Shown piece by piece: positions 6,195-31,024 of a stretch of DNA of 64,000 bases (the stretch's first letter is position 1; every line of letters begins with the position of its first letter). The notes below the pieces were generated by a model that worked only from the letters and a program-made list of their open reading frames with translations, ran no database searches and was not told the DNA's origin. This stretch comes from Candidatus Multivorans sp. (GTDB taxonomy: Bacteria; Acidobacteriota; Thermoanaerobaculia; Multivoradales; Multivoraceae), in the NCBI GenBank assembly GCA_965224025.1, contig OZ245033.1:2656001-2720000 (forward strand), written 5' to 3'. The translations under genes were made by a program, and so were the position numbers.

Positions 6195-6353
6195 CTAGAA
6201 GCTTGCGCGGCAGAAACTGGGTGCGCCGGCGTGCCATCCGTGCGCCCGAGTGACGGGCGCACGGAATGGTTCACAGGTGGCGCGGATCGCGCCACCTGGG
6301 TTCCCGCCGGCATCCTGCGCGAAGCGTCGGCTTCCGTGAGTTCTGCCGCGCTA
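6195..6353 (+). repeat. Repeat family A, most complete copy, with terminal inverted repeats
   Basis: gcgcggcagaa (6205-6215) ... ttctgccgcgc (6341-6351) enclose the double hairpin; lies between convergent genes. Confidence 0.85.
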
Positions 6354-7511
6354 GCGCTGCGGCGCCAGCTCTCGCAGGCACTCTGCCAGCAGTTCGACCC
6401 CTTCGCGGATCCTGGCGACGGAGGGGCAGGCGTAGGCCAGACGCAGGAACGGCACGTCCTCGCGCCCCGCATGGTAGGCGGCGCCGTGGCCGTATTCGAG
6501 GCCGCGCCGCTCGCCGAGCGCAAAGAGCGCCTTGCGGTCCACTTCCTCCGGCAGGCCGACCCACAGGAACATGGCGCCGGCAGGCTTGCGCCAGGTGCAG
6601 ACGCCGCCGAGCTCCTCGGCGAGCGCGGCCAGCAATGCGTCACGCTTCGGCAGCAGGGCGGCGTTGTTGCGCTCGATCTGAGCCGGCAGGCGGCCGCGCA
6701 GCAGTTCCGCAACGATGCTCGAGGACAACGTGCTCTGGCCGGCATCGAAGCGCCGATCGAGAAACCGCTGTTGGAGCGGCTGCCTGGCCAGGAAGTAGCC
6801 GATCCGGACTCCGGCGCCGAGGATCTTGGACAGCGACCCGATGTAGACGACTCCTTGGCCGCCGGCCAGGCTGTAGAGCGACTGCGGCGGGCGCGGCGCG
6901 TCGTCGTAGTGGACGTCGGCGTAGCAGTTGTCCTCAACCAGAAGGACCTCGAACTCGCGCGCCGCTTCGATCATCTCGAGGCGCCGCTCGCGCGGCATCA
7001 CGGCGCCGGTCGGGTTGTGGTAGGTCGGCAGGGTGTAGATGAAACGCGGCTTCCTGCCGTCCGCGGCCAGGCTCCCCAGCGTTCGGCGCAGTTCGCCGAT
7101 ATCCATGCCCTGCTCGTCCGTCGGCACGCCGACCAGGCGGTAGCCGAGCCCCCGGTAGGCGCCGAGGGTGCCCGAGTAGGTCGTCTCCTCCGTGATCACG
7201 ATGTCGTCCGGCTCTTCCATCAGCGCCCTGCCCACCAGCGTCACCGCCTGCATGGAGCCGTTGGTCAGCGCGACCTCGTCGGGGTCGTACTCCACGCTTT
7301 CGCGGTCCGCTTCGCGCCGGGCAAGCACTTCCCGCAGACCGGGATGGCCGAGATCACCAGGGTAGAAAGCGAAGTTCTTCCCGATGTCGAGAATCGCGCG
7401 TCCGGCCGCCTCGGCCATCTCGGCGGCCGGGAACGCTTCGGGCGCCGTCATGCCGACCCGCATCGGAATCGGGTTCGCAGGCGGGCCACTCGAGTCTGGA
7501 GCGCCGGTCAT
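6351..7511 (-). CDS. PLP-dependent class I/II aminotransferase (MocR/LysN-like catalytic domain)
   Basis: TNGSMQA, YTLPTYHNPTG, VEDNCY, GSLSKILGAGVRIGY, GAMFLWV; start uncertain. Confidence 0.88.
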   Translation of the reverse strand: MTGAPDSSGPPANPIPMRVGMTAPEAFPAAEMAEAAGRAILDIGKNFAFYPGDLGHPGLREVLARREADRESVEYDPDEVALTNGSMQAVTLVGRALMEEPDDIVITEETTYSGTLGAYRGLGYRLVGVPTDEQGMDIGELRRTLGSLAADGRKPRFIYTLPTYHNPTGAVMPRERRLEMIEAAREFEVLLVEDNCYADVHYDDAPRPPQSLYSLAGGQGVVYIGSLSKILGAGVRIGYFLARQPLQQRFLDRRFDAGQSTLSSSIVAELLRGRLPAQIERNNAALLPKRDALLAALAEELGGVCTWRKPAGAMFLWVGLPEEVDRKALFALGERRGLEYGHGAAYHAGREDVPFLRLAYACPSVARIREGVELLAECLRELAPQR

Positions 7512-7591
7512 CGCGGCGGGGACTGTAGCAGCGCCGGGCGGGCTGTTACCCTCTGCCGCCTCACAACCGACAACACTGGGGGAATCGGACG

Positions 7592-8359
7592 ATGAAGGAC
7601 CTCTTCGACCTCACCGGCAGGGTGAGCGTCATCACCGGATCGACGAAGGGCATCGGCAAGGCGATGGCCGAAGGCCTGGCTGCCTTCGGCTCGAAGGTCG
7701 TCATCTCGAGCCGCAAGGCGGATGCCTGCGAAGCGGTTGCGGCCGCGATCAACGAGAGCGGCGGCGAGGCGATGGCGCACCCCTGCCACGTCGGTCACAA
7801 GGATCAGTTGGAACGCCTGGTTGCGGCGACCCGGGAGCGCTGGGGGAAGATCGACAACCTGGTCGTCAACGCCGCGGTCAATCCGTACTTCGGTTCGAGC
7901 CTGGGCATTCCGGACTCCGCGTTCGACAAGGTGATGGAGGTCAACATCAAGAGCGTCCACTGGCTGTGCCAGATGGTGATTCCCGACATGCGGGAGCGCA
8001 AGGACGGGTCGATCATCATCGTGTCCTCGGTCGGCGGCTTCCGCGGCAGCTCGATGCTCGGCGCCTATGCGATCTCCAAGGCCGCGGACATGCAGCTCGC
8101 GCGGAACCTGGCGGCCGAGTTCGGTCCCGACAACATCCGCGTCAACGCCGTGTGCCCCGGCCTGGTCAAGACGGACTTCGCCCGCGCGCTTTGGGAGGAC
8201 CCGGAGCGGGAGCAGGCGGTCGCCGCGAGAACTCCGCTCCGGCGCCTCGGCGAGCCGGAAGACTGCGCCGGGATCGCGGTCTATCTCGCGTCGCGCGCGG
8301 GTTCGTGGACCACGGGCCAGACCTTCACCGTCGACGGCGGGGTCGTGGGCTGCGGTTGA
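7592..8359 (+). CDS. Short-chain dehydrogenase/reductase (DHRS4-like)
   Basis: TGSTKGIG, YAISK, NIRVNAVCPG, TGQTFTVDGG. Confidence 0.93.
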   Translation: MKDLFDLTGRVSVITGSTKGIGKAMAEGLAAFGSKVVISSRKADACEAVAAAINESGGEAMAHPCHVGHKDQLERLVAATRERWGKIDNLVVNAAVNPYFGSSLGIPDSAFDKVMEVNIKSVHWLCQMVIPDMRERKDGSIIIVSSVGGFRGSSMLGAYAISKAADMQLARNLAAEFGPDNIRVNAVCPGLVKTDFARALWEDPEREQAVAARTPLRRLGEPEDCAGIAVYLASRAGSWTTGQTFTVDGGVVGCG

Positions 8360-9777
8360 TCTCGTTCCCCGCGGCGCTGCTGCTCGCCGCCGGTGCGGTG
8401 GCCGCCCAAACGGCCGCCGAGCCCGCCGGCGCGGTGTTCCTCGCCAGCGGCGCCCGGGTCGGAGAAGTGACCGCGACGTCGGCCGTCGTCTGGACCCGGA
8501 CAACGGCCGAACCGCAGCGGCGTGCAGGAGAGGAGATCTCCGGCCGACCGGTCGTGACGCTCGAGCCCGCTGTCGACGTGTCGACGCTCGAAGGAGCGGT
8601 CCCCGGGGCGCCGGGCGAGGTCCGGGCGACCGTGAGGCGCCGGGATGGAAGTGGTGAAGTGCGGCTCGTCGACTGGCGGCCGACCGAGCTCGCTCGCGAC
8701 TTCACCCGTCAGATTCTGCTCGACGACCTGGCCGCCGATACCTCGTATCTCGTCACGGTCGAGGCACGGCCGGCGGCGGATTCCGAAGCGACGGCCCTTG
8801 ACGCCGTGGCGTTCCGCACCGCGCCGCGGCCGGACCAGCGGCGTCCGGTTCGCTTCGCCGCGATGACCTGCCAGCACTACGGGCGCCGCGACCGCACGGA
8901 CGGCTTCCAGATCTACTCGTCGATGGCCGCCGGCGGGCCGGACTTCTACCTGTCCATCGGCGACAACGTGTACTACGACAACGAGTCCCCGCGCGTCACC
9001 TCCGTGGAGTTGGCGCGCTACCACTGGCAGCGGATGTTCACCCTTCCGGCGGTGGCCACCTTCCTGCGTTCGGTGCCCGGCTACTGGCTCAAGGACGATC
9101 ACGACCTGCTGCGGAACGACTCCTGGCCCGGGATCGAACCGGGCATCTCCGCGCCGATGACGTTCGAGGAGGGGCTGGCGGTGTTCGCGGAACAGACGCC
9201 GGCACCCGAACGTCCCTACCGTACCGTCCGCTGGGGCAAGGGGCTGCAACTCTGGCTGGTCGAGGGCCGTGACTTCCGTTCGCCCAACGACATGCCGGAC
9301 GGCCCCGGCAAGACGATCTGGGGCGCCGAACAGCGGCGGTGGCTGCGGGAATCCCTGCTTGCAAGCGACGCGGACTGGAAGATCCTCGTCTCACCGACGC
9401 CGATCGTCGGCCCGGACCGGGGCAACAAGGCGGACAACCACGCCAACGCCGCCTTCAGCCATGAGGGCGACGCGGTCCGCGAGTGGGTCCAGGCGAACAT
9501 GGACGACCGATTCCTGGTCATCGTCGGCGACCGGCACTGGCAGTACCACTCGGTCCATCCGGGGACTGGCCTCGACGAGTTCTCCGTCGGCCCGGCCAGC
9601 GATGCCCATGCCGGCGGCACGCCCGGCGAGGATCCCGACTACCACCGCTTCCACCGCGTCGGCGGCGGCTTTCTCAGCGTCGACGTCGACTGGGTCGGCG
9701 ACCGCCCGCGCATCGTGCTGCGGCACCGGGATGCGTTCGGCCGGATGGTCTACGAGGTCGAGCGTCTCGGTTCGTAG
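8356..9777 (+). CDS. Alkaline phosphatase D family protein
   Basis: Signal peptide from TTG 8356 (overlaps the SDR stop); SAVVWTR, GDNVYYD, KDDHD, GDRHW. Confidence 0.88.
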   Translation: MISFPAALLLAAGAVAAQTAAEPAGAVFLASGARVGEVTATSAVVWTRTTAEPQRRAGEEISGRPVVTLEPAVDVSTLEGAVPGAPGEVRATVRRRDGSGEVRLVDWRPTELARDFTRQILLDDLAADTSYLVTVEARPAADSEATALDAVAFRTAPRPDQRRPVRFAAMTCQHYGRRDRTDGFQIYSSMAAGGPDFYLSIGDNVYYDNESPRVTSVELARYHWQRMFTLPAVATFLRSVPGYWLKDDHDLLRNDSWPGIEPGISAPMTFEEGLAVFAEQTPAPERPYRTVRWGKGLQLWLVEGRDFRSPNDMPDGPGKTIWGAEQRRWLRESLLASDADWKILVSPTPIVGPDRGNKADNHANAAFSHEGDAVREWVQANMDDRFLVIVGDRHWQYHSVHPGTGLDEFSVGPASDAHAGGTPGEDPDYHRFHRVGGGFLSVDVDWVGDRPRIVLRHRDAFGRMVYEVERLGS

Positions 9778-9793
9778 GGGCTGAGCGCTGGCG

Positions 9794-9826
9794 TCAGCCC
9801 TCCGGCTGGACTCGGCCTGGGCTCAC
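9794..9826 (-). pseudogene. Possible 10-codon remnant of a HepT-like toxin gene (MSPGRVQPEG*)
   Basis: GTGA overlap with the mntA-like stop at the position where the HEPN partner normally starts; ends at once in a hairpin. Confidence 0.35.
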
Positions 9827-10278
9827 GGCTGGCGGTTCCTGTTCGCGTAGCGGCGCGCGGCGGCCTGTTTCTTCAGTTGCGGGATGAAGTCGAAGTAGCG
9901 CGAGAGAGCGTAGCCGGCGCGGGTGGTCGTGGCCCTCGGGTCGCGCGTCACCAGCAGTTTGCCGTCGCGCAGGACGCGGTGGTAGAGCAGGGGCGGCGCC
10001 CGGTTCAGCAGGACGACGTCGATGTCGTTCGTTCCCAGCTCGGTCATGAGGTCGGTGATGAGTTTCGCGTCGTAGCCGTACGGGCCCGGCTCGGCGAGGT
10101 CTTCGTCGATGAACACGGCGACGTCGATGTCGCTCAGGGCGCCCGCGTCTCCGCGCGCCCGCGAACCGAAGAGGTAGGCGTCGAGGATCTCGGGCCGGGG
10201 CTCCAGGGCGCGGGTCAGCCGGGCCTGAAGATCCGTGCCCTCGGTGCTCGTTCTTCCGGATTGCGCCTTGCCCATCAT
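9823..10278 (-). CDS. MntA-like minimal nucleotidyltransferase (type VII TA antitoxin family)
   Basis: AYLFGSRARG, SDIDVAV, IDVVLLNRAPPLLYHRVLRDG. Confidence 0.88.
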   Translation of the reverse strand: MMGKAQSGRTSTEGTDLQARLTRALEPRPEILDAYLFGSRARGDAGALSDIDVAVFIDEDLAEPGPYGYDAKLITDLMTELGTNDIDVVLLNRAPPLLYHRVLRDGKLLVTRDPRATTTRAGYALSRYFDFIPQLKKQAAARRYANRNRQP

Positions 10279-10399
10279 CGGTAGTTGCAGAAAGTGGGTT
10301 TCGCGACTCTGCCTGGACGTATCGTACAGCCGACGCGAAGTGCCAGCCCGCTGAAGCCGGTCGACTGCTAGCGTCCGCTGCTCTGGTCCAACGAGGACG

Positions 10400-11227
10400 T
10401 CAGATCGTCGCCTTCGGCACGGCCAGCCCCGCCACCGGCGCCCGGGTCCGGAAGATCGAGCCGCTGCTCGCCGGATCGTCCGGGTCGCCGGCGGTGACGA
10501 CGTAGAGGTCTCGCCGGTCGCTGCCGCCGAAACAGACGCTAGTGATGTTCTTCGCCGGAACTTCCAGGTGGCTCACGATCCGGCCTTCGGCGTCGAAGCG
10601 GGTGACGCAGCCTCCGGCGAAGCAGGCGACCCAGAGGCAGCCCTCTTCGTCGACGGCGAGGCCGTCGGGGCGGCCCCGATCCGGCGAGGCGAGCGGCCCG
10701 CGGTTGCCGCATTGGCCGTCTTCCATCACGTCGTGGGCGACCACGTGGTTGCGGGCGGTGTCGGCATGGTAGAGCGTCCGGCCGTCCGGCGAGAAGCCGA
10801 TGCCGTTGGTCAGGCTGATGTCGCCGTAGAGTTCGGTCGCATTGCCCTCGGACTCGATTCGCCAGCACTCGCCGGGAGTGCGCTCCTTGGCTCCCGTGAA
10901 CGGGCTCGTGCGCATCGTTCCGCAGATGACCCGGCCCTGGGGGTCGACGAACAGGTCGTTGAAGCCGGGCGTGTCCGGCGGGTCGAAGAGGACGCGCGTG
11001 ACGCCGTCCCGAACGTGGCAGATGTTGCGGCCCGAGCAGACGACGCCGCCGTCGGCATGGAGCGCGATGCCTCCTACGCCGCGACGCTTGGGCACGACCG
11101 TTTCGATCTTGCCGTTCGGGCTGCGCCGGTAGACGCCGCCGTTGTGGACGTCGCTGAAGTAGAGGCGGTCCGCGGAGTCGACGCGGGGTCCTTCGATCAG
11201 TGTGTAGCCGGACGCGAGGAGCTCCAT
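10400..11227 (-). CDS. SMP-30/gluconolactonase/LRE family beta-propeller
   Basis: IEGP, FND..VDPQGR, NGIGFSPDGRTLY, PDGLAVDEEG, TSVCFGG. Confidence 0.92.
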   Translation of the reverse strand: MELLASGYTLIEGPRVDSADRLYFSDVHNGGVYRRSPNGKIETVVPKRRGVGGIALHADGGVVCSGRNICHVRDGVTRVLFDPPDTPGFNDLFVDPQGRVICGTMRTSPFTGAKERTPGECWRIESEGNATELYGDISLTNGIGFSPDGRTLYHADTARNHVVAHDVMEDGQCGNRGPLASPDRGRPDGLAVDEEGCLWVACFAGGCVTRFDAEGRIVSHLEVPAKNITSVCFGGSDRRDLYVVTAGDPDDPASSGSIFRTRAPVAGLAVPKATI

Positions 11228-11249
11228 GGGGCGCGGACTGTAGCAGCGC

Positions 11250-12728
11250 TCATCGCCAGCGAATTCCCAGCCAGGCGGCGGGGTGGAGGAAGATCAGCAC
11301 GGTGACGATCTCGAGCCGGCCGATCCACATGTTGAGCGCCAGGTAGACCTTGATCGGATCGGAGAAGTGGGCGTAGTTGCTGAACGGTCCGACGTTTCCC
11401 AGGCCCGGGCCGATGTTGCCGAGGGTGGCGATGCTGGCGGTCACTGCGGTCGGCATGTCCGTACCGGCCAGTCCGACGACGCCGACGCTCGCGGCGAACA
11501 GCACGAGGTAGAGCAGCAGAAAGGACACGACGGCGTGGATCACGTCGTCGGGCACTCTCCGGCCGTCCAGGCGCAGCGGCCGCACCGCCCGCGGGAAAAT
11601 GGTCTGGAAGAGCTCGAGCAGCGTCGACTTCGCGATCAGCCATACCCGCACCAGCTTGGGGCCTCCGGCCGCGGAGCCGCCGCAGCCGCCGCAGAACATG
11701 AGCAGCAGCAGGATGGTCTGGCTTCCCTGCGCCCACAGCGTAAAATCCTCGGTCGCGAATCCGGTTGTCGTCATGATCGCGAGCGCCTGGAAGCCGGCGC
11801 GCCGCAGCGTGTCCTCCGACAGTGCGTCGGTCGCGATCCACTCCCACAGCGGCACCTCGTCGCTCTTGAGGGTGCAGGCCAGAAGCAGGGTCGCGGCGAC
11901 GACGATCAGGAGGTAGAGCCGGAACTCCTCGCTTCGCAGCAGGGTCAGCGGGCGGCCGCGGATGGCCTGGAACTGGAAGGCGTAGTTCGTTCCGGCGAGG
12001 AGCATGAAGGCGATCACGGTCCACTCGATCAGGCTGCTGCCGTAGCCGCCGATGCTGCTCGGATGAGGCGAGAACCCTCCCGCCGACACGGTGCTCAGGG
12101 AGTTGCAGATGGCGTCGAAGGGCGGCATGCCGAAGCGGATCAGGAGGCCGGTTTCGAGAGCGGTCAGGCCGACGTAGAGCGTGTACAGGTAGAGCGCCGT
12201 GTTGCGGATGCGGGGTGTGAGGCGCTCCTCCGTGGGCCCGGGTGCCTCGGCGAAGAACATCTGGCGGCCGGCGATGCGGAGCGCGGGCAGCACGGCGATG
12301 AAGAGGGCGATGATGCCCATGCTGCCCACCCACTCGCTCAGGCTGCGCCACAGGAAGATGCCTTCACTCACCGCGTCGAAGTCGGTGAGGATCGTGGCGC
12401 CGGTGCCGGTCAGGCCCGACATCGACTCGAAGAGCGCGTTGGCGGGGGCGAAGCCGTTCGCGGAGTAGGGGATGGCGCCGATCAGCACGAGCAGGAGCCA
12501 GGCCACGGCCACGGTCGCCAGCCCTTCCATCCGCCGCATCTCGAGTCCCCGGCCGGGCAGCAGCCGGGAAGCCAGACCCAGAAGGACGGCGAGTCCGGCG
12601 GCGGCGAGGAAGGCCAGGGCGCTGCGCCGATGCCCGTAGGCGGCCTCGACCGCCGACGGCGCCAGCAGGACCGCGCCGAAACAGCCGACCAGCGCCAGGG
12701 TCGTGCGGAGAACGAGCGAGACGCGCAT
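11250..12728 (-). CDS. trkH: TrkH family potassium uptake permease
   Basis: FESMSGLTGTGAT, GSMGII, TTTGF, GGCGGSAAGGPK, GNIGPG, WIGRLE. Confidence 0.93.
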   Translation of the reverse strand: MRVSLVLRTTLALVGCFGAVLLAPSAVEAAYGHRRSALAFLAAAGLAVLLGLASRLLPGRGLEMRRMEGLATVAVAWLLLVLIGAIPYSANGFAPANALFESMSGLTGTGATILTDFDAVSEGIFLWRSLSEWVGSMGIIALFIAVLPALRIAGRQMFFAEAPGPTEERLTPRIRNTALYLYTLYVGLTALETGLLIRFGMPPFDAICNSLSTVSAGGFSPHPSSIGGYGSSLIEWTVIAFMLLAGTNYAFQFQAIRGRPLTLLRSEEFRLYLLIVVAATLLLACTLKSDEVPLWEWIATDALSEDTLRRAGFQALAIMTTTGFATEDFTLWAQGSQTILLLLMFCGGCGGSAAGGPKLVRVWLIAKSTLLELFQTIFPRAVRPLRLDGRRVPDDVIHAVVSFLLLYLVLFAASVGVVGLAGTDMPTAVTASIATLGNIGPGLGNVGPFSNYAHFSDPIKVYLALNMWIGRLEIVTVLIFLHPAAWLGIRWR

Positions 12729-12739
12729 CGCCGGCGGCC

Positions 12740-14092: not shown

Positions 14093-14157
14093 GTTCGGGA
14101 CGATACCGGACCGCGCCCGGGCTCGCAGCCAGACAGGATTCCCGGATGTGCGGCCGG

Positions 14158-15585: not shown

Positions 15586-15730
15586 CGGTGGGGTGGTCTT
15601 GGGCGGCTTGCAGTGAATGTGCAAGAGGCGCGGGTGGGCGACGACGGAAAGTACCACAGCCTAGAGAGAGAGTTTCAAGCGTGAACAACCTCCCGCGAGA
15701 CGAGCCCGCGGACCGGCGGGGAGATTCCCG

Positions 15731-21606: not shown

Positions 21607-21613
21607 GAACGGT

Positions 21614-22648
21614 TCACGGGATCACGGAGACCTTGACCGCACCGGACCGTTTGTCGCCGGCGACTTCGAAGGCGCGCTCGATGTCGTCCAGCGGCACTTC
21701 GTGGGTCAGCAGGCCGGCGTAGTCGCTTCCGGCCGCGGTCAGGATGCGCACCGCCTCCTCGAAGTCCGCTTCGCCGGGGCGGCGCGCGTAGCAGTTGGAC
21801 CACTGAAGGCGTGCCTCCTTGCCCAGGAGGGTCAGAGGATCGAGCGTCAGGGGCCCGAGGAAGACGCCCAGGACGGCGATCGTGCCGCCCGGCGCCAGTG
21901 CCGCCGAGGCCGCATCCATCGTGTCCGCCGTGCCGCCGACCGTCTCGACGACCGCATCGGCGTCGAGGCCGGCCAGATCGTCAGTCGACGCCGCGTCGAG
22001 TGACTCGTGGACGCCGAGCCGCTTCGCCAGGCGCGCCTGGTGCTCGTAGCGGGCCGTGATCGCAATGTCGTCGAACCCCCAGGCGCCCGCGACCGCGGCC
22101 ACCGCCAGGCCGATCGCGCCGGCGCCGAGGATCAACAGCCGTTCGGGCTGCCTGCTGTCGTTGAAGCCGGCCAGACGCAGGCCGTGGACGGCCACCGCGA
22201 AGGGTTCGGCGAGCGCGGCGAGGGCCGGCGGGAGAGTCTCGGGAACCCGGTACAGGCGGTGTGCTGGCACGACCACGGCGTCGGCGAAGCCGCCGGGACG
22301 GCGGAGGCCGTAGAGCTCCAGGTCACGGCAGATGGAGTCCCGGCCTTCGCGGCACGGGCCGCAGTTGCCGCAGGAGGCGAGCGGCTCGACCACGACCGGT
22401 TCGCCGCCGCCCAAGCCCTCGACTTCTGGGCCCAGGGCGTCGACTAGCCCGGCCATCTCATGCCCCATGGTCGAACCCGGGGCGATGATCGGCTGCGGGC
22501 TGTGAACGAGATGCAGATCCGTGCCGCAGAGCCCGCAGGCGGTGATCCGGACGCGGACCTCGCCGGGGCCGGGTTCCGGCAGCGGCCGTACGGCCAGCGC
22601 CACTCTTCCCGGTTCGAGGTAGACGCCGGCGCGCATGGTCGCCGTCAT
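21614..22648 (-). CDS. Zn-dependent medium-chain alcohol dehydrogenase
   Basis: CGLCGTD, GHE, CGNCGPC...C, GAGAIG. Confidence 0.92.
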   Translation of the reverse strand: MTATMRAGVYLEPGRVALAVRPLPEPGPGEVRVRITACGLCGTDLHLVHSPQPIIAPGSTMGHEMAGLVDALGPEVEGLGGGEPVVVEPLASCGNCGPCREGRDSICRDLELYGLRRPGGFADAVVVPAHRLYRVPETLPPALAALAEPFAVAVHGLRLAGFNDSRQPERLLILGAGAIGLAVAAVAGAWGFDDIAITARYEHQARLAKRLGVHESLDAASTDDLAGLDADAVVETVGGTADTMDAASAALAPGGTIAVLGVFLGPLTLDPLTLLGKEARLQWSNCYARRPGEADFEEAVRILTAAGSDYAGLLTHEVPLDDIERAFEVAGDKRSGAVKVSVIP

Positions 22649-23904
22649 GGGGCCGTTCCTTCCTTCCCGTCTCCCAGACACACGGGAAGCGCAAGCAGGA
22701 AGAGCGCCCAGCGCTGGATCTCCGTATCGCGCCAGTTCGCCTCGAACAGGCCCGCGACGTTGAGGGCCAGCAGAGCGAAGAGAACACCCAGATAGAGGTC
22801 CGCGCGGGGTCCGGCTCGCCCTCCCTCGCCGCGGTAGCGCTCGATCGCCGGAGCCGCCGCCGCGCCCATCAGCCACAGGTAGCAAAGCAGCGAAGGGATG
22901 CCGCGACTTGCGGCCATGTGGACGAACGTGTTGTGCAAGTGCTTCACGCGCGCCCGCACGGAGGTCGGATGACGGTAGACCGGGTACCACTCGCGGACCA
23001 TGGCCGGGCCGATGCCTGTGAGCGGCCGGTCCGCGATCATCCGGCCGCCGGCCCACAGCATGCAGAGCCGGTCGTAGTTCGAGGGGTTGCGGACGTCGAC
23101 CACGGACGTGGCGCGTTGCCAGTAGGTCGGCCAGAAGGTGGGCGCCACCGCGGCCAGCGAAACGGCCGCCAGCACCAGGGCGGCGGCGTAGCCCACGAGG
23201 ACCCGGCGACGCTGCAGAGTGAAGGCGGCGGTGGCGACGGCGAAGGCGCCGAGCCAGGCGCTGCGGGTGAGGGTCAAGACGAGCGTTCCGCCGACAATGG
23301 CCAGCACGAGCCAGTTCACCTGCCGGCGCCAACCGTGGCTGCTGGAGACACGCCCGGCGATCAACGCCAGACCGAGCAGGAGCACGCCGGAGAAGGTCAT
23401 GTAGTGCGAGAACGGCCCCGGGATCCGCTGGTGCAGGGGTCCGTAGTCGGTGAAGACGAACTGCGTCAGGCCGTAGACGGCCAGGACCGCCGAGATACCG
23501 ATGACCGCGGCGATCACAACCCTCACCTGCCGTTCGCCCCGGACCAGCAGGAGCGCCAGTGGCAGGGTGAGGACGGAGTAGAGCTGGGAGAGTTCCTGGA
23601 GACTCGTCCCCGGCGCGTAGGAAAGGACCGCCGAGAGGACAAAGCAACCGGTATAGGCGGCCAGGGGGTAGAGGAGCCGCCGCCGTCGCCGGCGATCCTG
23701 GTCGCCGGCTGTGAAGAACAGTCGTCGGCGACTGAACGCGCTCCAGACCAGCGTAAAGAACAGCAGGATGTTCGAGAGCGCGATCCCGAAGGTGGTCACG
23801 AGCTGGCCCAGGAAGAGCCAGAAGCCCGCGTTTCCCCTGGCTTCGCGGCAGGGCCGGGGCACGGCGCGCTCGATCGCCCCCATCGGCCCCTGCGTCCGCT
23901 GCAT
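22645..23904 (-). CDS. O-antigen ligase family membrane protein
   Basis: About 10 TM segments, TLTRSAWLG, R..LW..G..MI.D.PLTGIG, HLHN; the ORF-track start at 23946 runs into the IS end. Confidence 0.85.
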   Translation of the reverse strand: MQRTQGPMGAIERAVPRPCREARGNAGFWLFLGQLVTTFGIALSNILLFFTLVWSAFSRRRLFFTAGDQDRRRRRRLLYPLAAYTGCFVLSAVLSYAPGTSLQELSQLYSVLTLPLALLLVRGERQVRVVIAAVIGISAVLAVYGLTQFVFTDYGPLHQRIPGPFSHYMTFSGVLLLGLALIAGRVSSSHGWRRQVNWLVLAIVGGTLVLTLTRSAWLGAFAVATAAFTLQRRRVLVGYAAALVLAAVSLAAVAPTFWPTYWQRATSVVDVRNPSNYDRLCMLWAGGRMIADRPLTGIGPAMVREWYPVYRHPTSVRARVKHLHNTFVHMAASRGIPSLLCYLWLMGAAAAPAIERYRGEGGRAGPRADLYLGVLFALLALNVAGLFEANWRDTEIQRWALFLLALPVCLGDGKEGTAP

Positions 23905-23991
23905 GGCGGTCAGTCTATGCGGGTCCGGCTCACTGGGACTCTCCACCCTTTAGCAAGTGTGTTTTGGGGAGGCTGCTGCGGGTCAGGGAGG

Positions 23992-25245
23992 TCATGCGAC
24001 CTGGGCATGGCATCGCTTGTTGGGGTCGAAGAGAGTTCGGTCTCGGAGCATGGCGCAGGCGACGCCGAGGAGTCGGTCGACGAGTTGTCTGATGGCGCGT
24101 CCGTGCGTCTTGCCTTCGGCTTTCATGGCGTCGTACTTGGCGCGGCTGATCGGGTCGTGCTGGATGGCGACTCGTCCCCAGTGATAGACGGCGTCGCTGA
24201 GGTGTTCGTTGGCGGCGAGTCGTCGCATGACGATGAGCTTCTTGCCGGACTTGACGGTCACCGGCGCCACTCCGCAGAGGCAACGCAGTGCCTCGTGGTC
24301 TCTGCGGCCCAGGCTTTGATCGGCCTCGGAGAGCAGGGTGGCGAGGCCGACCTTGCCGAGTCCGGGCAGCGACCTGAGGATGGCGGCGTCGCTCGGCTTA
24401 GGGGAGTCGTCGTCGTTTTCCCGTTGGGCCGGGGCCTCGAGTGCGCGGGTCATCCGCTCCAGCCGCTTGTCGGCGTCGGCGAGTTGGCGGCAGACGGTGT
24501 CGAGCACCGGCCGGAGGAGTCCTATGTGTTCGACGGCGGCCTTAACGGTGTCCGGGGAAACGGCGATCGGCTCGGCCCGCAGTTGATCGCGCAGTTGGGC
24601 GGAGGTCAGGCGCCGGATGCGGTGTTCCTTGAGCAGTTTGGCGAGCGTGGCTTCGCGCAGCCGTCGAGCCTTGCCGGGGGTCGGCGCCAGTCGCCACAAG
24701 GCCAGCGCGAAGGGCGCCGACACCTCGTTCTTGACCACGGCGAGAAACTGCGGGTAGTAGCGCCAGAGCTGGTCGCGGACCTGGTTCTCCAGGCGGTTCT
24801 TCTGGCCGACCAACTGCTTGCGGCCGCGGGACACCTCGCGCAGCATGACGATGGCGGCATCGGATGGTTGCACGCGGTTCAGGCACTCGGGGTCGGTGCG
24901 AAGCGCGGCGGCGAGCACCCGTGCATCGCGGCGGTCATCCTTGGCGCCGGCGACGGAGAAGCGGTCCCTGAAGCGGTCGAGCTGCTTGGGGTTGATCGAA
25001 TGGACGGCGAAACCCCGCTCCAGGAGAGTCTCGACCACCGGTCCGTGCGGCACCTCGATGGCGACGCCGATCTCGTCCGGAGACGTCGGTCGGGTATGTC
25101 CAAGGAGCCAGTCGGCCATGGCGGCAAGTCCCTTGCCGCTGTGGTCGAACGCCCGCTCCCCCCTCACCTTGCCGTCCCGATCCAGCACACACACGTGGTG
25201 GGTCTCGGACCCCCAGTCCACGCCGGCGAACCACGTCCTGGTCAT
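23992..25245 (-). CDS. IS110 family recombinase/transposase
   Basis: DEDD motifs GVDWG, AIEVP, KDDRRDA; SLPGLG; GVAPVTVKSGK; start ATG 25245 after AGGAGG. Confidence 0.95.
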   Translation of the reverse strand: MTRTWFAGVDWGSETHHVCVLDRDGKVRGERAFDHSGKGLAAMADWLLGHTRPTSPDEIGVAIEVPHGPVVETLLERGFAVHSINPKQLDRFRDRFSVAGAKDDRRDARVLAAALRTDPECLNRVQPSDAAIVMLREVSRGRKQLVGQKNRLENQVRDQLWRYYPQFLAVVKNEVSAPFALALWRLAPTPGKARRLREATLAKLLKEHRIRRLTSAQLRDQLRAEPIAVSPDTVKAAVEHIGLLRPVLDTVCRQLADADKRLERMTRALEAPAQRENDDDSPKPSDAAILRSLPGLGKVGLATLLSEADQSLGRRDHEALRCLCGVAPVTVKSGKKLIVMRRLAANEHLSDAVYHWGRVAIQHDPISRAKYDAMKAEGKTHGRAIRQLVDRLLGVACAMLRDRTLFDPNKRCHAQVA

Positions 25246-25288
25246 CTCGTCCTCCTTCTCCCTTGCGGTAGTGTTGCCTGGTCGGCAT

Positions 25289-25430
25289 GCCGCGTTGCCT
25301 GCCCGTACCTGTACTGGTGCTCTAAGGCACTGACTCTCCACTGGGCGTCCAACGCGGCGAAGCAGCCAGGGCACGGGTCCCAGCCAGGTGCTCGAAGCAC
25401 AGTGCGCCGGTGGTCGCTCCTGGCTGCTTG
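25289..25430 (-). ncRNA. Predicted bridge RNA (target-binding loop, then donor-binding loop)
   Basis: Two stem-closed loops, each with an inner GTGC/GCAC hairpin flanked by segments matching target or donor; transcript ends unknown. Confidence 0.75.
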
Positions 25431-25645
25431 CCGACCTTCCTTCAGTGACTCCGGCAGGCCGGAAACGCAACCGACCGGCGGTCTCGGCTGCGGAAGCTGC
25501 CGGTCCGGCGGAAAACGGCAGACCGTTTCCCGCCGGACCTTGGAAAACCGGCAAGCCGGTTTCCCACAGCTACCGCAGCCACGACGGCTACTGGTCGATT
25601 CCACCTCTCTCAACGACCCACCAGAATCCACCCGAGAAAGGTACA

Positions 25646-25725
25646 GGTGCGCCGGCGTGCCATCCGTGCGCCCGATGACGGACGCACGGACTGGTTCACG
25701 GGTGGCGCGGATCGCGCCACCCGTG
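25646..25725 (+). repeat. Repeat family A copy carrying the IS110-1 insertion
   Basis: ggtgcgccggcgtgccatccgtgcgcccgatgacggacgcacgga...ggtggcgcggatcgcgccacc starts at the IS core. Confidence 0.88.
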
Positions 25726-25777
25726 TTCTGGCCGGCATCCGCCGCAAGGCGGAATCCGGCTGGGCTCCGAAGGCGGC

Positions 25778-28378
25778 CTACCGTCCCCGGCTCCGCACGC
25801 CCGTTGCCACGAGCCCCGGACGCAGCACTTCGACCCGGATGTCCCTGAGCCCATCCGGGCCGGCCGCCGCGACCGACGGCGGTTCGAAGGCGATCAGGTA
25901 CTGCGAACGAAGAGCGCGCGCAATCTCGCGGTAGATGCGGTCCAGGTCGTCCACCGATTCGGCGGCGTGGTACTGGCCTCCGGTGCGGTCGGCAAGCTTC
26001 CGCAGCGCATCGATCGTCGCCGGGTCGCCTACGCGCAGCGCGATCGGGTAGGTCGCAACGCCGGCCAGCTCGACCTGGGCGAGCACGCGCTCGAAGTCGA
26101 GGTTGCTGTCGGTGTCCGCGCCGTCGCTCAGGATGACGAGAGCCCGCCGGTCCGGCCGTCCGGCGAACGAGGAGACCGCGTAGGCGATGCCGTCGTAGAG
26201 CCGGGTCGCGCCCCAGGCGCGCAGCCCCTCGGCGGCGTAGCGAAGCTGCCGGGCGTCGCCGACAAAGGGCGTCAGCCGTTCGAGATCGTGGTTGAAGACG
26301 AGGAGGCTGGCGGCGTCGCGCTCGGTCAGGACCCGTTCGAAGAAGCGCTGCGCGCTCGTAGCCGCGACCCGTACGCTGCGTCCCAGGGAGCTGGAGACGT
26401 CCATCAGCAGGGCAACGTTCAGCGGCCGGTCCGCGAGGCTGCGGAAGTCATGGACCGGCGCCTCGATGCCCTGGTGAAGAACCCGAAAGTCCCCCGGTCC
26501 GAGGTCCGTCGCCGGGCCGGTCTGCCGGCCGCCGACGGAGACGAGGATGTCGACCAGGCGCACATCGATCTGCTCAGGCGCCCCGGCGCCCAGGAATGCG
26601 AGATCCTCGACCTGCTCGCCGGAGCGGAGCGTGGCCGCGGCGCGAACGAAGCTGAGGGGTAGCCGCAGCCCGGCCGGAACCCGGCAACGGAAGGGTGGCG
26701 CGGTCATCCGCTCGAGCAGGTCCGCGCCCAGGAAGCAATCGACGTGCTCGAGTTCGCGTCCGGACGGCACGTCGACGCGGACGGCCAGGTCGAGCGCCTG
26801 GTCGAGGCGTGCCGGGTCGGGAGGTTCAAGCGCGATCGCGAACGGGCGCTCCTCCCGTTCGACGTCGAGGCCGTGCCGGGCCACGAGCCGCCCCACGCGG
26901 TCAAGGCCACGGAGTTCGATCCGGTGACGCTGCTCCGGCAGATCGATGGCGTGAACGAAGGGCGGCTCGCTGACCGTGGCCACGTTCTCGCCGTCGCGCC
27001 GGAAGACGACCTCGGCGATGCCGGGGCTGGCTGTGGCGCGGGCGGTGAACGTGGCGCCCAGCACCCGGCCGTCCGGCGCCAGAAGTTCGACGCTCGGCAA
27101 CTGGTTCAGGACGATCGTCTCCCGCCGGGTCAGCAGGTGGAGCCCCGGCACGTCGGGCGGTGTGGAAAGCGCCGGCACGTCGACCGTGTTGCTGCTGTGG
27201 AGCAGCCCGCGCCCCAGGCCGTCCTCGGCGCGGAGTTCGAAGCGGTAGGCGCCGGGAGGCAGGCGACGGTAGAAGTCGAGCGCGATGCCCGGCGAACGGT
27301 CACCGGTGTCCGTCGCGTCGACTGGAATGCCGCCGCTGATGTGGTGCGTGACGACGAAGGCGTCGGCGAGCCGGTTGCCGAGGAAGACATCGCCCGTGAT
27401 CGTCACCCGGTCGAGGATCTGGCCGGCGCCGAGTTCGGCGAGATGCTCGGGAGGCAGCCGCAGCCGGCCGCGCATCGCGGTGCGGCGGTTCTCGCTGCCG
27501 AGGGCCTCGAACTCCAGCGAAACACCTGGCATTGCCATGGCAGCGGGATCGAGGACGGCCTCCACGCGCAGGAAGTCGTCGACCCAGCTCGAGGTCCGGT
27601 CTTCGGCCCCGGTCGGTTTCCCTATCCAACCGAGCCGCTCGACGAACCGTCGCCAACCTGCCGCGCGTTCGAGCCGTCGCTGCAACCGGGCGCGTTCGTT
27701 CGCGGTCAGGCAGCGGCGGCGTTCCGCCTGTTCCAGTATCCGGGGCGCGCCGACTCGCGGGGGAGGAGTGGCGTCGTCACTCGGGCTGTCCGAAGCTTTG
27801 GGGGCGAAAGCGAGATCCACGCCGGATTCCGGCGACCACACTCGCATCGATCGGGGGTCGAAGTTCACTTGCTGGACGAACGCGAGCAGGAGTTCGCCCT
27901 CGCCCCGTGGCGGCGGCCGGCCGAGTTGGTGTTCGAGTTGCCATCCGTACCAGGTCCAGATCTCAATCCGGCGCAGGGTCGATTCGCACGGCTCGACCAT
28001 CTGCCGGTCAGCCGGCTTGCCGGCCAGCAGCACGGCGCGCTCCATTGCCGGCGACCGCTCGCGGAGCTGGTCGCGGGCTCGCCGGTTTGCTTGCCAGCGT
28101 TCGAGCAGGCGCGGCGGACGCGCCGCCCAGAAGGCGCGCAGGAAGCGCTCGCGCGCGCCCGGGCCTTCGAGTTGTTCGAAGGCCCGGCGCTCGCGGTCGG
28201 TGAGCAGCGGTTCGACCTCGGCGAACCACTGGGTGTAGAAGTCGGGCAGCCGGGCTTGCGGGCGGCGACTGCCCTGGGCCTCCGTGGGGAGGGCTGCCGA
28301 GAGCAGCACCGTCGCGGCGAACAACGTCGCAGCCGCGATTGGCGGCGCTCCAGCGGCGAGCGCGGGCGACGCGGCCAC
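25778..28378 (-). CDS. Secreted GWxTD-like + Ig-like + VWA domain protein
   Basis: Signal peptide; W..EVEPLLT..ER.AF...RERFLRAFW; C-terminal VWA with LLMDVSSS, GATRLYD, ILSDGAD, LRSQYLI. Confidence 0.82.
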   Translation of the reverse strand: MAASPALAAGAPPIAAATLFAATVLLSAALPTEAQGSRRPQARLPDFYTQWFAEVEPLLTDRERRAFEQLEGPGARERFLRAFWAARPPRLLERWQANRRARDQLRERSPAMERAVLLAGKPADRQMVEPCESTLRRIEIWTWYGWQLEHQLGRPPPRGEGELLLAFVQQVNFDPRSMRVWSPESGVDLAFAPKASDSPSDDATPPPRVGAPRILEQAERRRCLTANERARLQRRLERAAGWRRFVERLGWIGKPTGAEDRTSSWVDDFLRVEAVLDPAAMAMPGVSLEFEALGSENRRTAMRGRLRLPPEHLAELGAGQILDRVTITGDVFLGNRLADAFVVTHHISGGIPVDATDTGDRSPGIALDFYRRLPPGAYRFELRAEDGLGRGLLHSSNTVDVPALSTPPDVPGLHLLTRRETIVLNQLPSVELLAPDGRVLGATFTARATASPGIAEVVFRRDGENVATVSEPPFVHAIDLPEQRHRIELRGLDRVGRLVARHGLDVEREERPFAIALEPPDPARLDQALDLAVRVDVPSGRELEHVDCFLGADLLERMTAPPFRCRVPAGLRLPLSFVRAAATLRSGEQVEDLAFLGAGAPEQIDVRLVDILVSVGGRQTGPATDLGPGDFRVLHQGIEAPVHDFRSLADRPLNVALLMDVSSSLGRSVRVAATSAQRFFERVLTERDAASLLVFNHDLERLTPFVGDARQLRYAAEGLRAWGATRLYDGIAYAVSSFAGRPDRRALVILSDGADTDSNLDFERVLAQVELAGVATYPIALRVGDPATIDALRKLADRTGGQYHAAESVDDLDRIYREIARALRSQYLIAFEPPSVAAAGPDGLRDIRVEVLRPGLVATGVRSRGR

Positions 28379-28427
28379 GCGAACGCGGCCGCCCCGGAGG
28401 AGGCGCTGATCCGACCGGGCCGAGGCC

Positions 28428-29237
28428 CTACTCCGACAGCAACGCCTTGATCGCCTCGGAAGGCTCGAAGACGCTCGGATCGACGTCGTTCCAGGTGACG
28501 GACTCGATGGTCTGGGTCATCTCCATACTCATGAAACTGATGACCACCCTGCTCGGGGCCATCAGACCGCCGAACTCCTTGTAGTCGCTCGAGCTGATCG
28601 TGACATCGACAGTGCCCATCTCATTCGTCTGTGTCGTCTCGATGCCGATCAGGAGGCCGGTGTCCTTGGCGAAGTAGTGCGAGGATTCGTTGCCGTCGGT
28701 GTCGACGAGGTCGAGCTGATAGGCCGCTTGGCCGTTCCACTCTGTTTCCCCGGCCGCCTGCTGCTCGGGGTAGATCTCGGCGTACTCCAACTCGGAGTAG
28801 AAGCGGGCGTCGCGCGCGGCGTCCTTCAGCATCTGGCCATCCAGGAGGCGCGTGCCCTGCATTGGATCGTCGGCCCAGCCGATCTCGCCGTTGTAGACCT
28901 CAAGGGTCTCGCCAAAGCCGGCCAGGTTGGTCGACTCGTAGTACTTGTCGGGCGCCATCTGGTAGATCGTCGTTTCACCGGAGACACCCATTGCGGGCAG
29001 GTCGAACGCGGCCTTGATTGTCGCGGATGTATGCGAGCGCACAGCTTCCTCGCCACCGATCGCTTCAACTAAGCGGGCGATGATCTTCTCTTCCTCTGTC
29101 AGCTCTCGGGGTGGTGGGACTTCTGCCGTCGCCTCTTGGGGTGGTGGATCTGCGTTGTAGGCAGAGCAGGCGCCGAGAATCAGACCGCAGCAGGCAAGTG
29201 CGAGCACGGTGCGGCGGCGAAGGGAATGGAAGGACAT
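28428..29237 (-). CDS. Lipoprotein, LolA-like / lipoprotein-sorting fold candidate
   Basis: Lipobox LGAC; EAIGGEEA, APDK, YNGEIGW, YFAKDTGLL, SDYKEFGG. Confidence 0.7.
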   Translation of the reverse strand: MSFHSLRRRTVLALACCGLILGACSAYNADPPPQEATAEVPPPRELTEEEKIIARLVEAIGGEEAVRSHTSATIKAAFDLPAMGVSGETTIYQMAPDKYYESTNLAGFGETLEVYNGEIGWADDPMQGTRLLDGQMLKDAARDARFYSELEYAEIYPEQQAAGETEWNGQAAYQLDLVDTDGNESSHYFAKDTGLLIGIETTQTNEMGTVDVTISSSDYKEFGGLMAPSRVVISFMSMEMTQTIESVTWNDVDPSVFEPSEAIKALLSE

Positions 29238-29410
29238 GAGCGGGTCTCCTTCGGAGGATGTGTTGGTTGTCGTACCTGACTACGTAGAAGCGGCGGCGCG
29301 GTTGCGGTGCGTTCCCTAGGAGTGTCCGCAGCGTTGTCGCTGCGCTGTCGCGCAGGGAACAGGCAGCGAGTAGCCAACGTTACAGCGGCGTCGTGGGTTC
29401 ATAGAGTTGG

Positions 29411-29567
29411 CCGCGCTGGGCAGCGAGGCCGCGCAGGCACTGGTGTGTTGGCGCCCGACTAGGAGTTTGGCCCGGACCGTGATCGGCGCTCTGACGCTGG
29501 CGGCGCGGCTTGTGTCGCGACCCCGTATGCAAGATTGAGCTTTTCGCCGCGGTCTCTGCCCAGCGCG
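29411..29567 (+). ncRNA. Predicted bridge/seek-type guide RNA with a multibranch fold
   Basis: Outer stem cgcgctgggcag...cgcg / cgcgg...ctgcccagcgcg encloses four segments that match the junction flanks. Confidence 0.62.
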
Positions 29568-29600
29568 ACGATTGGATTCCACATCTACGGGAGGCAGGGG

Positions 29601-30920
29601 ATGGCAAAGCGGAAGGCGGAGCGTCTGGAAGTCGTTCACCCGGATTGCGCCGGTGTGGACGTAGGCAAGCGCAAGCACTACGTGGCGGTGGCCCCGTCGC
29701 GTTTCGAGCGGCCGGTGCGCAATTTCTCGTCGTTCACGGAGGACCTCGAGGCGATGGCCTCGTGGCTTCAGGAGTGCGGCGTGCGTGAGGTGGCGCTGGA
29801 GTCGACGGGGGTGTACTGGATTCCGGTGTTCGAGGTGCTGGACCGGGCGGGGTTCGAGGTGCATCTGGTGAATCCTCGGGCGACCAAGCAGGTGAGTGGC
29901 CGCAAGAGTGACGTTCTGGACTGCCAGTGGATCCGGCAGTTGATGAGCTACGGGCTCCTGCGCGGTGCGTTTCGCGCGCCGGACGAGTTGTGTCCGCTGC
30001 GTTCGTACACGCGGCAGCGCGCCCAGTTGGTCCGCGACCGCAGCCGCGCGGTGCAGCACATCCAGAAGGCTCTGGTGCAGATGAACGTGCAGTTGGACAA
30101 CGTGCTGAGCGACATCATGGGCAAGACCGGCCAGTTGATCGTGCGCGCGATCGTCGCCGGCGAGCGCGACGGCGCGGCGCTGGCCCGTCACCGGGACGGT
30201 CGCTGCAAGGCTGGTCCGGCTGTGATCGCGGCGAGTTTGCAAGGCAACTGGCGAGACGAGCACCTGTTCGCTCTGGGCCAGGCGCTGGCCCGCTACGACA
30301 TGCTGCAAGGCCAGATCGAGATGTGCGAGAAGCGCATCGACGCCGAGCTCGACGGTCTGGCCCAAGACGGCGTCGAGGACGCGCCGCCGCCCGGTTCGAA
30401 GGCGCGCGAGCGCGCCCTGCGGAAGCGGCTGCATCGCATGCTCGGCGTGGACCTGGTCGCCATTCCGACGGTCGGCGTCGAAACCGCGCTGACCTTCGCC
30501 GCTGAGATCGGCCCGGACCTGTCCCGGTTTCCCTCGCAGGGCAACTTCTGCTCGTGGCTGTGTCTGGCTCCACCGACCAACATCAGCGGCGACAAACGGC
30601 TGAACGGCCCTCCCGTGAAGCAGACCAACCGGGTCGGCCAGGCGCTGCGCCAAGCCGCCACCACAGCCCGCAACAGCAAGACCGCCATCGGAGCCTCTCA
30701 CCGCCGGCGTCTCCAGCACATGGAGAAGGCGAAGGCCATCAAGGCCACCGCTCATCAACTCGGCCGACTGATCTACGCCATGCTGACCCACGGCGAAGAG
30801 TACGTCGAGCGCGACCTCGCCGAAATGGAGGCCGTCCGACGCGAACGACAAATCAGAAACCTGCAGCGTCAGGCCCGCCGCCTGAATCTGGCTCTCGTGC
30901 CGACCGAACATGCCGCCTGA
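29601..30920 (+). CDS. IS110 family recombinase/transposase
   Basis: AGVDVG, ALESTGVYW, RKSDVLDC, IPTVG, WLCLAP..NISG; ATG 29601 after GGAGG. Confidence 0.95.
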   Translation: MAKRKAERLEVVHPDCAGVDVGKRKHYVAVAPSRFERPVRNFSSFTEDLEAMASWLQECGVREVALESTGVYWIPVFEVLDRAGFEVHLVNPRATKQVSGRKSDVLDCQWIRQLMSYGLLRGAFRAPDELCPLRSYTRQRAQLVRDRSRAVQHIQKALVQMNVQLDNVLSDIMGKTGQLIVRAIVAGERDGAALARHRDGRCKAGPAVIAASLQGNWRDEHLFALGQALARYDMLQGQIEMCEKRIDAELDGLAQDGVEDAPPPGSKARERALRKRLHRMLGVDLVAIPTVGVETALTFAAEIGPDLSRFPSQGNFCSWLCLAPPTNISGDKRLNGPPVKQTNRVGQALRQAATTARNSKTAIGASHRRRLQHMEKAKAIKATAHQLGRLIYAMLTHGEEYVERDLAEMEAVRRERQIRNLQRQARRLNLALVPTEHAA

Positions 30921-31024
30921 ATCGCGCAACCTGCGCTGCCAACAAGGAACCCCTACCCGTTTGTTCCATGCAAGCGTGCGCGGCAGAACATGGGGTGCGC
31001 CGATTCTTCCTGCGGCGCACGCAG

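Follow-up and report, generated by a model that had tools for sequence, protein, structure and literature searches.

The stretch analysed here, a window of 64,000 nucleotides (nt) from Candidatus Multivorans sp. (positions 2656001-2720000 of contig 1, C1, of the genome that we call G000; 5.14 Mb in 3 contigs, 67.6% G+C), holds two insertion sequences (ISs) of the IS110 family, named ISa and ISb, and, at position 6195, an empty copy of a mosaic intergenic repeat with a target motif for ISa and a near-target for ISb (Table 1). A preliminary description of the window, in which ISa was called IS110-1 and ISb IS110-2, had read them as divergent elements using sites about 20 bp apart in one host repeat; its observation was confirmed and its interpretation partly supported. 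Our results indicate that the window very probably contains two independent IS110 elements, each of which has multiplied through RNA-guided insertion at specific sites, namely at a short motif of its own, within a modular landscape of repeats. This reading is carried by the observed junctions, copy numbers, guide-to-flank matches with their covariation, and counts of motif co-occurrence.

Table 1. Coordinates of the two elements, their guides and the repeats discussed in the text, counted from the first letter of the window. LTG, RTG, LDG and RDG, left target, right target, left donor and right donor guide; CDS, coding sequence; REP, repetitive extragenic palindrome.
Feature	Position	Strand	Remarks
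Empty mosaic repeat	6195..6354	+	inverted outer head/tail (CTAGAAGCTTGCGCGGCAGAA ... TTCTGCCGCGCTAG) around a REP hairpin whose loop holds the nested 75-bp repeat
Unoccupied ISb-type left target + core	6195..6201	+	CTAGAAG, one G>A vs the guide-matched CTAGGAG; AG core 6200-6201
Perfect unoccupied ISa target ACTG-GG-TGCGCCGG	6216..6229	-	GG core 6220-6221; minus-strand reading CCGGCGCA-CC-CAGT
ISa	23936..25647	-	1708 bp proper at 23938-25645; GG cores 23936-7 and 25646-7; 15 copies
ISa recombinase CDS, 417 aa	23992..25245	-	domains DEDD_Tnp_IS110 + Transposase_20
ISa bridge RNA, two stem-loops with internal loops (predicted)	25286..25433	-	guide matches, predicted fold, covariation
ISa LTG CCGGCGCACU	25401-25410	-	equals left target + core
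ISa RTG GCUGGG	25379-25384	-	complementary to CCCAGY
ISa LDG GUGGAGAGUC	25332-25341	-	equals the element's right end
ISa RDG GUACAGG	25308-25314	-	complementary to core + left end
ISa right flank	25646..25790	+	REP arm (GGTGCGCCGGC), nested 75-bp repeat, partner arm
ISb	29316..30974	+	1650 bp proper at 29323-30972; AG cores 29321-2 and 30973-4; left target CTAGG 29316-20
ISb structured leader RNA (putative bridge-RNA homologue)	29424..29593	+
ISb LTG CUAGGAG	29459-29465	+
ISb LDG AUGCAAG	29527-29533	+	equals own right end
ISb recombinase CDS, 439 aa	29601..30920	+	domains DEDD_Tnp_IS110 + Transposase_20
57-bp palindromic repeat occupied by ISb	30973..31029	+	head CTAGG-AG-CGTGCGCGGCAG; shares only the head module with the 6195 repeat

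Two elements with fixed junctions

A Pfam search returned 32 matches to DEDD_Tnp_IS110 (PF01548) genome-wide, 15 of ISa type and 14 of ISb type, and BLAST of the window region against the genome resolved the two multicopy elements. Both recombinases carry PF01548 and PF02371, with all scores above the curated cut-offs (116.8 and 48.4 bits in ISa, 90.6 and 44.5 bits in ISb). Since the two proteins are only 28% identical over 177 residues (BLASTP, E = 7e-8), they are rightly called divergent. Both elements show the family's 2-bp core, present at the two junctions of ISa (GG) and of ISb (AG) and single in empty sites, and terminal inverted repeats are absent from both (end identities of 9/30 for ISa and 11/30 for ISb). 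By the lengths of their leaders and tails (400 and 54 nt in ISa, 278 and 52 nt in ISb), they have the arrangement of the IS110 subgroup, which is described as a long 5' leader and a short 3' tail, the IS1111 type showing the reverse together with subterminal inverted repeats (PMC11187229).

The 15 copies of ISa are 97.5 to 99.3% identical, and two of them are truncated. Their target, RCTG-GG-TGCGCCGG, is one arm of a REP hairpin; in the window, ACTG-GG is followed by ACTCTCC at one junction, and GGTACA is followed by GG-TGCGCCGGC at the other. All 15 left junctions read RCTGGG or ACCGGG (ACTGGG in 9, GCTGGG in 4, ACCGGG in 2), all 13 copies that keep the other end continue there with GGT(G/A)CGCCGGC (GGTGCGCCGGC in 10, GGTACGCCGGC in 3), and the orientation relative to the REP arm is identical at every site (15/15 left and 13/13 right junctions). 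A clear GCCGG partner arm, which completes the REP hairpin, is present at 11 of these 13 sites; it stands 4 to 6 nt further on, or, for the window copy, beyond a nested 75-bp repeat. The ends suggested by BLAST-style comparison, 23932 and 25656, take in conserved target bases, and we therefore use the proper element plus one 2-bp core.

ISb is present in 14 copies that are 99.5 to 99.9% identical, plus one degenerate copy at 85%. In the window, CTAGG-AG precedes TGTCCGCAG at the left junction, and CCATGCA precedes AG-CGTGCGCGGCAG at the right one, where the general pattern is AG-NNTGCGC. The left side is CTAGGAG in 14/14 copies, and the sequence farther upstream is unrelated. This target, CTAGG-AG-NN, is the terminus of several palindromic repeat families other than the REP used by ISa. 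CTAGGAG occurs 136 times in the 5.14 Mb, against about 571 occurrences expected from base composition; ISb occupies 14 of these sites and 122 are empty, 41 of the empty ones continuing with NNTG (CTAGGAGNNTG) and 21 with NNTGCGC. Heads of the CTAGGAGNNTG type belong to several different palindromic families.

Both elements thus behave like REP-targeting ISs, in that all or nearly all of their copies break up an extragenic palindrome of the multicopy kind at one fixed position and in one orientation, and the regularity of the junctions is far beyond chance. Excision of either element in silico restores the uninterrupted string written out in the preliminary description, with the cores of Table 1, and the opposite orientations that it noted are likewise correct: with the repeat read on the plus strand, the ISa transposase lies on the minus and the ISb transposase on the plus strand. 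The mapping of all copies, which it had proposed as a check, placed every copy of both elements at its own motif (15/15 left junctions for ISa, 14/14 for ISb), but the two motifs were rarely found together.

Two further features of ISa are of note. The joined ends of ISa would create a hybrid promoter (TTGCTA, 17 nt, TACCTT), a junction-spanning arrangement reported as known in the IS110 family (PMC12288879). An O-antigen-ligase-like gene (Wzy_C; minus strand, 22648-23946) begins where the right end of ISa lies (contact at 23930-23946); since the start listed for this reading frame lies inside ISa, the true start and the promoter of the gene may be affected.

Guides in the leaders of ISa and ISb

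Leaders were read by the pairing rules given in PMC11208160, by which left guides equal the top strand, core included, and right guides are complementary to the core plus the right side. Judged from its sequence, ISa is RNA-guided: its bridge RNA is of the canonical type with two loops, and its four guides all match the target and the element ends. The guides follow one another in the order known from IS621, one on the 5' and one on the 3' side of each of two predicted stem-loops. In the target loop, the 5' side equals the left target plus core and the 3' side is complementary to the core plus the right target, the pattern that defines such a loop; in the donor loop, LDG and RDG were both located, and the LDG covaries. 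Target variants are mostly of kinds tolerated by wobble (A/G opposite guide G, T/C opposite guide U). An Rfam search at E <= 1 returned no bridge-RNA family, the only two matches being at chance level (E of 0.38 and 0.59).

In genus relatives, guide and flank have changed together. A copy 84% identical to ISa (genome G016) has an LTG, UCCGCGCACC, and an RTG, UCUCUGGG, that match its own flanks, GGTCCGCGCACC and CCCAGAGAT, which belong to another REP class. In an ISa-type copy of G013, the LTG AUCGGCGCACU fits its own flank GTCGGCGCACC, and in six 70%-identical copies of G010, which use the same REP arm as ISa, the LDG GUGGGGAGU tracks a changed right end. Within the genome studied, a C>U variant of the LTG, found in 5/16 aligned ISa copies or fragments, pairs without any mismatch with REP arms of the GTACGCCGG form; among copies whose own guide could be read, the U type stands at 2/3 GTACGCCGG sites vs 2/9 GTGCGCCGG sites, numbers too small for a test. 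We also compared the window with four public runs, as assembled contigs only. The change corresponding to this LTG variant (25404 G>A on the plus strand) is present in contigs of all four, and another, 25385 C>A beside the RTG, occurs in the public runs and not among the copies of this genome.

For ISb, we compared 59 related loci from other genomes, titled Pseudomonadales metagenome-assembled genomes and including Candidatus Multivorans, Ca. Foliamicus and Azotimanducaceae. The leaders of this lineage are conserved save for a hypervariable patch at the position of the LTG. Of the 42 loci with enough upstream DNA, 33 have a second copy of the 7-mer from this position at the left junction, 110-160 nt upstream; for control 7-mers from the same leaders, this was so in 4/1050 cases. 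Seven LTG variants (CUAGGAG, CCAGGAG, AUGCAAG, AUGAAAG, AUGCGAG, AUUGUAG and AUGGAAG) each agree with the flank beside their own copy, and the variants of the LDG agree with the right end of the copy that bears them; the distance from LTG to LDG is 68 nt in ISb vs 69 nt in ISa. ISb is thus predicted to be RNA-guided through its left guides.

An alignment of 21 ISb-lineage leaders supports a common structure of 33 pairs, in which 97.8% of cells are paired, vs 35-51% when the partners are slid; nine pairs carry compensatory changes on both sides, a value reached in 1/500 shuffles. In this predicted fold, the LTG is followed at once by a long-range helix, inside which lie two hairpins and the LDG. 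The fold of the single ISb sequence was no better than that of shuffles (z = +1.92), and the structure therefore rests on the alignment instead. Two candidates for a right guide were rejected: a variable patch of 4-5 nt after GGCG is a hairpin loop that tracks neither flank, and an 8-mer 5' of the LTG is, judged by eye, one strand of a helix. Since right guides were not located and, in one genome with 13 near-identical copies of the lineage, the bases after the core vary between copies, the RNA-read target of the ISb lineage looks like one of about 7 bp.

The sister lineages of ISb differ in what their target guide appears to read, namely the head of a host repeat (CTAGGAG/CCAGGAG) or the element's own right end (ATGCAAG, ATGAAAG, ATGCGAG), and lineages of the latter kind may stack head-to-tail. 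At seven loci (L025, L026, L044, L047, L049, L050 and L074), where the target guide equals or resembles the element's own right end, the copies sit directly after right-end-like sequence, sometimes with left-end-like sequence behind, which suggests head-to-tail homing. At another locus, L011 (G052:C2:1347615-1349300), in another species of the genus, an ISb copy is 99% identical to that of the window, and the orthologous flanking genes are 80-94% identical, a contrast that suggests a recent horizontal spread of ISb.

Modular repeats and the placement of the two elements

The intergenic repeats of this genome are mosaics of modules. The empty copy at 6195, which has a sulfatase gene on one side and an aminotransferase gene on the other, begins with CTAGAAG CTTGCGCGGCAGAA ACTGGGTGCGCCGG (6195-6229), and the two cores that the preliminary description had placed in it are exact. 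Its segments differ in copy number, with about 10-30 BLAST hits for the head, 40-115 for the REP arm and 155 for the 75-bp core. The latter (6231-6305 and again 25657-25731 in the window), nested in the hairpin loop of the REP with a GCCGGC arm on either side, is also found at many loci of genus relatives, at 85-96% identity. The 57-bp palindrome interrupted by ISb, looked at in the window, at L024 (G054) and at L012 (G055), is multicopy across the genus and forms a perfect tandem of three units (period 57) in G054. REP-associated tyrosine transposases (Y1 transposase, PF01797) were rejected as mobilisers of the repeats: despite hundreds of REP-like hairpins, PF01797 had 0 matches in this genome, and control genomes were matched.

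Part of this landscape may stem from the ISs themselves. A unit of about 59 bp (for example C1:5044164-5044222; none lies inside the window) occurs 24 times; it starts like the left end of ISb and finishes with the right end of ISb, GTTCCATGCA-AG. The left flank is CTAGGAG in 9 units (10 with one shorter variant), CCAGGAG in 5, the ATGCAAG end of another element in 2, and a near variant in 7; every one of the 24 units ends in AG, right flanks often read NNTGCGC as for ISb, and units stand in tandem at C1:3516468-3516585. The unit looks like a derivative of the ISb lineage resembling a MITE (miniature inverted-repeat transposable element). One could thus propose that the lineage makes part of the 'host repeat' system, through non-autonomous derivatives of about 59 bp and solo ends that would be mobilised in trans and would both occupy and create landing sites. 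Such a proposal adds to the reading of two independent elements and does not exclude it. It draws on the end-to-end units with their ISb-like ends, flanks and tandem arrangement, and has a precedent in MITEPpu9, associated with ISPpu9 (PMC12288879); yet, physically, a donor circle of 59 bp is implausible, the likeness of the units to the left end of ISb is, by eye, only moderate, and the palindromes headed by CTAGGAG show no similarity to ISb ends, so that we regard it as a tentative possibility, less probable than not. We are just as reserved about the broader suggestion that the nested fold, the missing right guides, the switching guide and the mini-elements, taken jointly, make the ISb lineage a bridge-RNA variant of a distinct kind, one that would also produce landing sites for itself. 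If this were true, part of the mosaic landscape of 'host repeats' in this bacterial group would be a by-product of IS110 activity.

The preliminary description had gone further than RNA-guided use of repeats and saw both elements converging on one safe-harbour repeat, with partitioned sites about 20 bp apart and room for repeat-to-repeat rearrangements; on this view, the two could coexist there. The 6195 mosaic does carry both motifs, on opposite strands and with cores 20 bp apart, and a single locus is doubly occupied: at C1:5042507-5045399, one diverged mosaic reads CTAGG-AG-[ISb]-AG-[59-bp unit]-AG, 18 nt, GG-[ISa, truncated], with the spacing predicted from 6195 (AG + 18 nt + GG) and 13/18 spacer positions identical. 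A REP-type arm at the 20-bp position is also found downstream of two further ISb copies (225362 and 3024487, besides 5042514). Genome-wide, however, this configuration is the minority: an ISb-type module is lacking upstream of 14/15 ISa copies, all outside such mosaics, one further copy (2022366) having only a distorted CCAGGAG version, and the 20-bp position lacks a REP-type arm at 11/14 ISb copies. The window copy of ISb itself lies in a different repeat, which has only a 21-nt head in common with that at 6195.

Empty sites tell the same story. The 14-mer compatible with ISa occurs unoccupied 40 times, or 51 times with wobble variants, and has a partner arm at 38/51; an ISb-like head stands upstream of only 6/51, and none of the six is an exact CTAGGAG. 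Conversely, a REP arm follows at 20-21 bp after only 3/41 empty CTAGGAGNNTG sites, all three in the GCGCGGG class, which does not match the LTG of ISa, and no empty site anywhere in the genome fits both elements perfectly. In other genera, relatives of ISb also use the CTAGGAG heptamer, and the right flanks there are unrelated. By a rough estimate (about 7 mosaics, with about 1/4 of the sites of each motif occupied), independent insertion would give about 0.4 co-occupied loci, so that the one observed shows neither attraction nor partition. With both window copies in collinear contexts that bear no sign of rearrangement, a shared, partitioned harbour is unlikely. What stands of the earlier interpretation is that both elements appear RNA-guided and are site-specific within multicopy intergenic repeats, each at its own short motif and in different modules, and that sites about 20 bp apart do occur, in the 6195 mosaic and at the doubly occupied locus.

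The related genomes bear on rearrangement and on empty alleles. In genus relatives, the genes on either side of both window copies stand next to each other and are collinear, with no sign of repeat-to-repeat exchange at these sites. The comparison of empty alleles met relatives that lack the repeat as well as the IS. In G055, G054 and G052, the orthologous ISb site reads just TTCC-CTAG-CTTGCCC, with neither ISb nor the 57-bp palindrome, so the 57-bp unit appears to have been inserted at (Y)TAG. At the ISa site, the whole REP cluster is missing in G003 and others, and a metagenome contig of run X1, about 95-96% identical, joins 23930 to 25814 through 21 other letters and is devoid of both ISa and the REP cluster. 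As IS and repeat are missing together, the repeats themselves would be recent arrivals. A composite transposon formed by ISa and ISb around the 3.6 kb between them was rejected, the segment and both its flanks being collinear in relatives; it is ordinary conserved sequence with a VWA-domain gene and one further gene. Elsewhere, the last 2.27 kb of contig 1 (C1:5045400-5047675) are an exact inverted copy of 5007822-5010092, joined to the internal breakpoint of a truncated ISa, which is not at an IS end. A contig of run X3 carries the same junction letters as a loose end, and the inverted copy could be a real rearrangement or an assembly artefact.

That the recombinase mainly recognises the structure of the REP hairpin, the RNA matches being incidental, is very improbable: the partner arm does stand directly beside the left target at 11/13 ISa sites, and a preprint on ISPpu10 treats the stem-loop of its target as an extra layer of specificity (10.64898/2026.03.19.712850), but the same preprint keeps base pairing as the primary match, guide and flank change jointly in three relatives of the ISa lineage and in seven LTG variants of the ISb lineage, and ISb sites have no common hairpin.

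Several observations nonetheless weigh against the reading of two independent, RNA-guided elements. One ISa copy with a C-type LTG sits at a GTACGCCGG site, which leaves a C:A mismatch, and the agreement between guide and site within the genome is therefore imperfect. Scans for exact and wobble complementarity between the ISb leader and the right target or left end found neither RTG nor RDG; the mechanism of ISb is therefore only half read, and recognition by protein or structure may contribute to its targeting. NNTG follows the core at 12/14 occupied sites vs 41/122 empty CTAGGAG sites, which hints at specificity beyond 7 bp and could alternatively reflect purifying selection against genic insertions. 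No same-strain empty allele, with the REP present and the IS absent, was found among the relatives and the one metagenome contig; since these lack IS and repeat jointly, they do not show the immediate pre-insertion state. Finally, the contamination of the assembly is estimated at 5.66%.

Working model and comparison with known systems

In our working model, the 400-nt leader of ISa would give rise to a bridge RNA with two loops. Its target loop would pair with about 14 bp, CCGGCGCA-CC-CAGY, that is, with one arm of a class of REP hairpins, and the donor loop with the joined element ends. Guide wobble would account for most target variants, one occupied site requiring a mismatch or a guide supplied in trans. 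ISb would represent a different lineage with a differently folded leader, in which CUAGGAG serves as the left guide for the target and AUGCAAG as that for its own right end. Its effective target would be about 7 bp, CTAGG-AG, a motif that, in a CTAG-poor genome, is concentrated at the heads of several families of palindromic repeats and MITEs. In a minority of mosaics, the ISb head is followed 20 bp on by the REP arm of ISa, as in the empty example at 6195 and the one other locus that holds both elements. By analogy with IS621, recombination would proceed through a circular intermediate and pairing with the bridge RNA, and the repeats may serve as harmless landing sites.

One genome thus offers two natural, readable cases of what would be bridge-RNA programming. 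For ISa, all four guides could be assigned, and close relatives appear to have been retargeted naturally between REP classes through 2-3 guide changes that are matched by the flanks. ISb apparently has a much shorter specificity, with a right-hand recognition that, unlike that of ISa, was not read. We want to emphasize that adjacent insertion sites in one copy of a repeat do not amount to a shared, partitioned harbour; counted over the genome, they resolve into two independent motif preferences within modular repeats. The ISb leader and the mini-elements provide leads into the diversity of bridge recombinases, the remainder being ordinary mobile-element biology.

Targeting of REPs by IS110-family elements has been described since 2006, and the closest precedent is the pair ISPpu9 and ISPpu10 of Pseudomonas putida KT2440, two elements that are not highly similar and that were reported at the same point of a REP in 7/7 copies each (PMC1525189). 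According to a later account, both prefer clusters of REPs, and ISPpu9 has a MITE-like satellite, MITEPpu9 (PMC12288879); for ISPpu10, the REP stem-loop has been given an additional role (bioRxiv 10.64898/2026.03.19.712850). With this pair, ISa and ISb share the presence of two dissimilar IS110 elements in one genome, with all copies in REP sequence and a 2-bp junction repeat as reported in PMC1525189, as well as the preference for clustered REPs and the MITE-like derivative reported in PMC12288879. Unlike ISa and ISb, ISPpu9 and ISPpu10 are described as sharing one REP point, between its bases 9 and 10 (PMC1525189); ISa and ISb read different motifs, on opposite strands and in different modules, that are adjacent only in a minority mosaic. 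The cores differ too, GG/CC in ISa and AG in ISb vs CT in ISPpu9 and ISPpu10.

Set beside IS621 of Escherichia coli, by description and not by sequence, ISa appears to have the same order of LTG, hairpin and RTG, then LDG, hairpin and RDG, the same left guides in top-strand sense and complementary right guides with the core in each pairing, a target within a REP, and a hybrid promoter over the joined ends (PMC11208160). Unlike those of IS621, the LTG of ISa is about 10 nt and its RTG about 6 nt, longer than in IS621, the RTG reaching 8 nt in the G016 relative; ISb departs further, in that its leader folds differently and the scans found no right guides in it. By sequence alone, ISa also resembles ISPpu10 in what has been termed a 'sequence-structure dual match': a GC-rich REP stem-loop lies directly before the left target, in transposase orientation, comparable to the 5' stem-loop extension described for ISPpu10 (10.64898/2026.03.19.712850).

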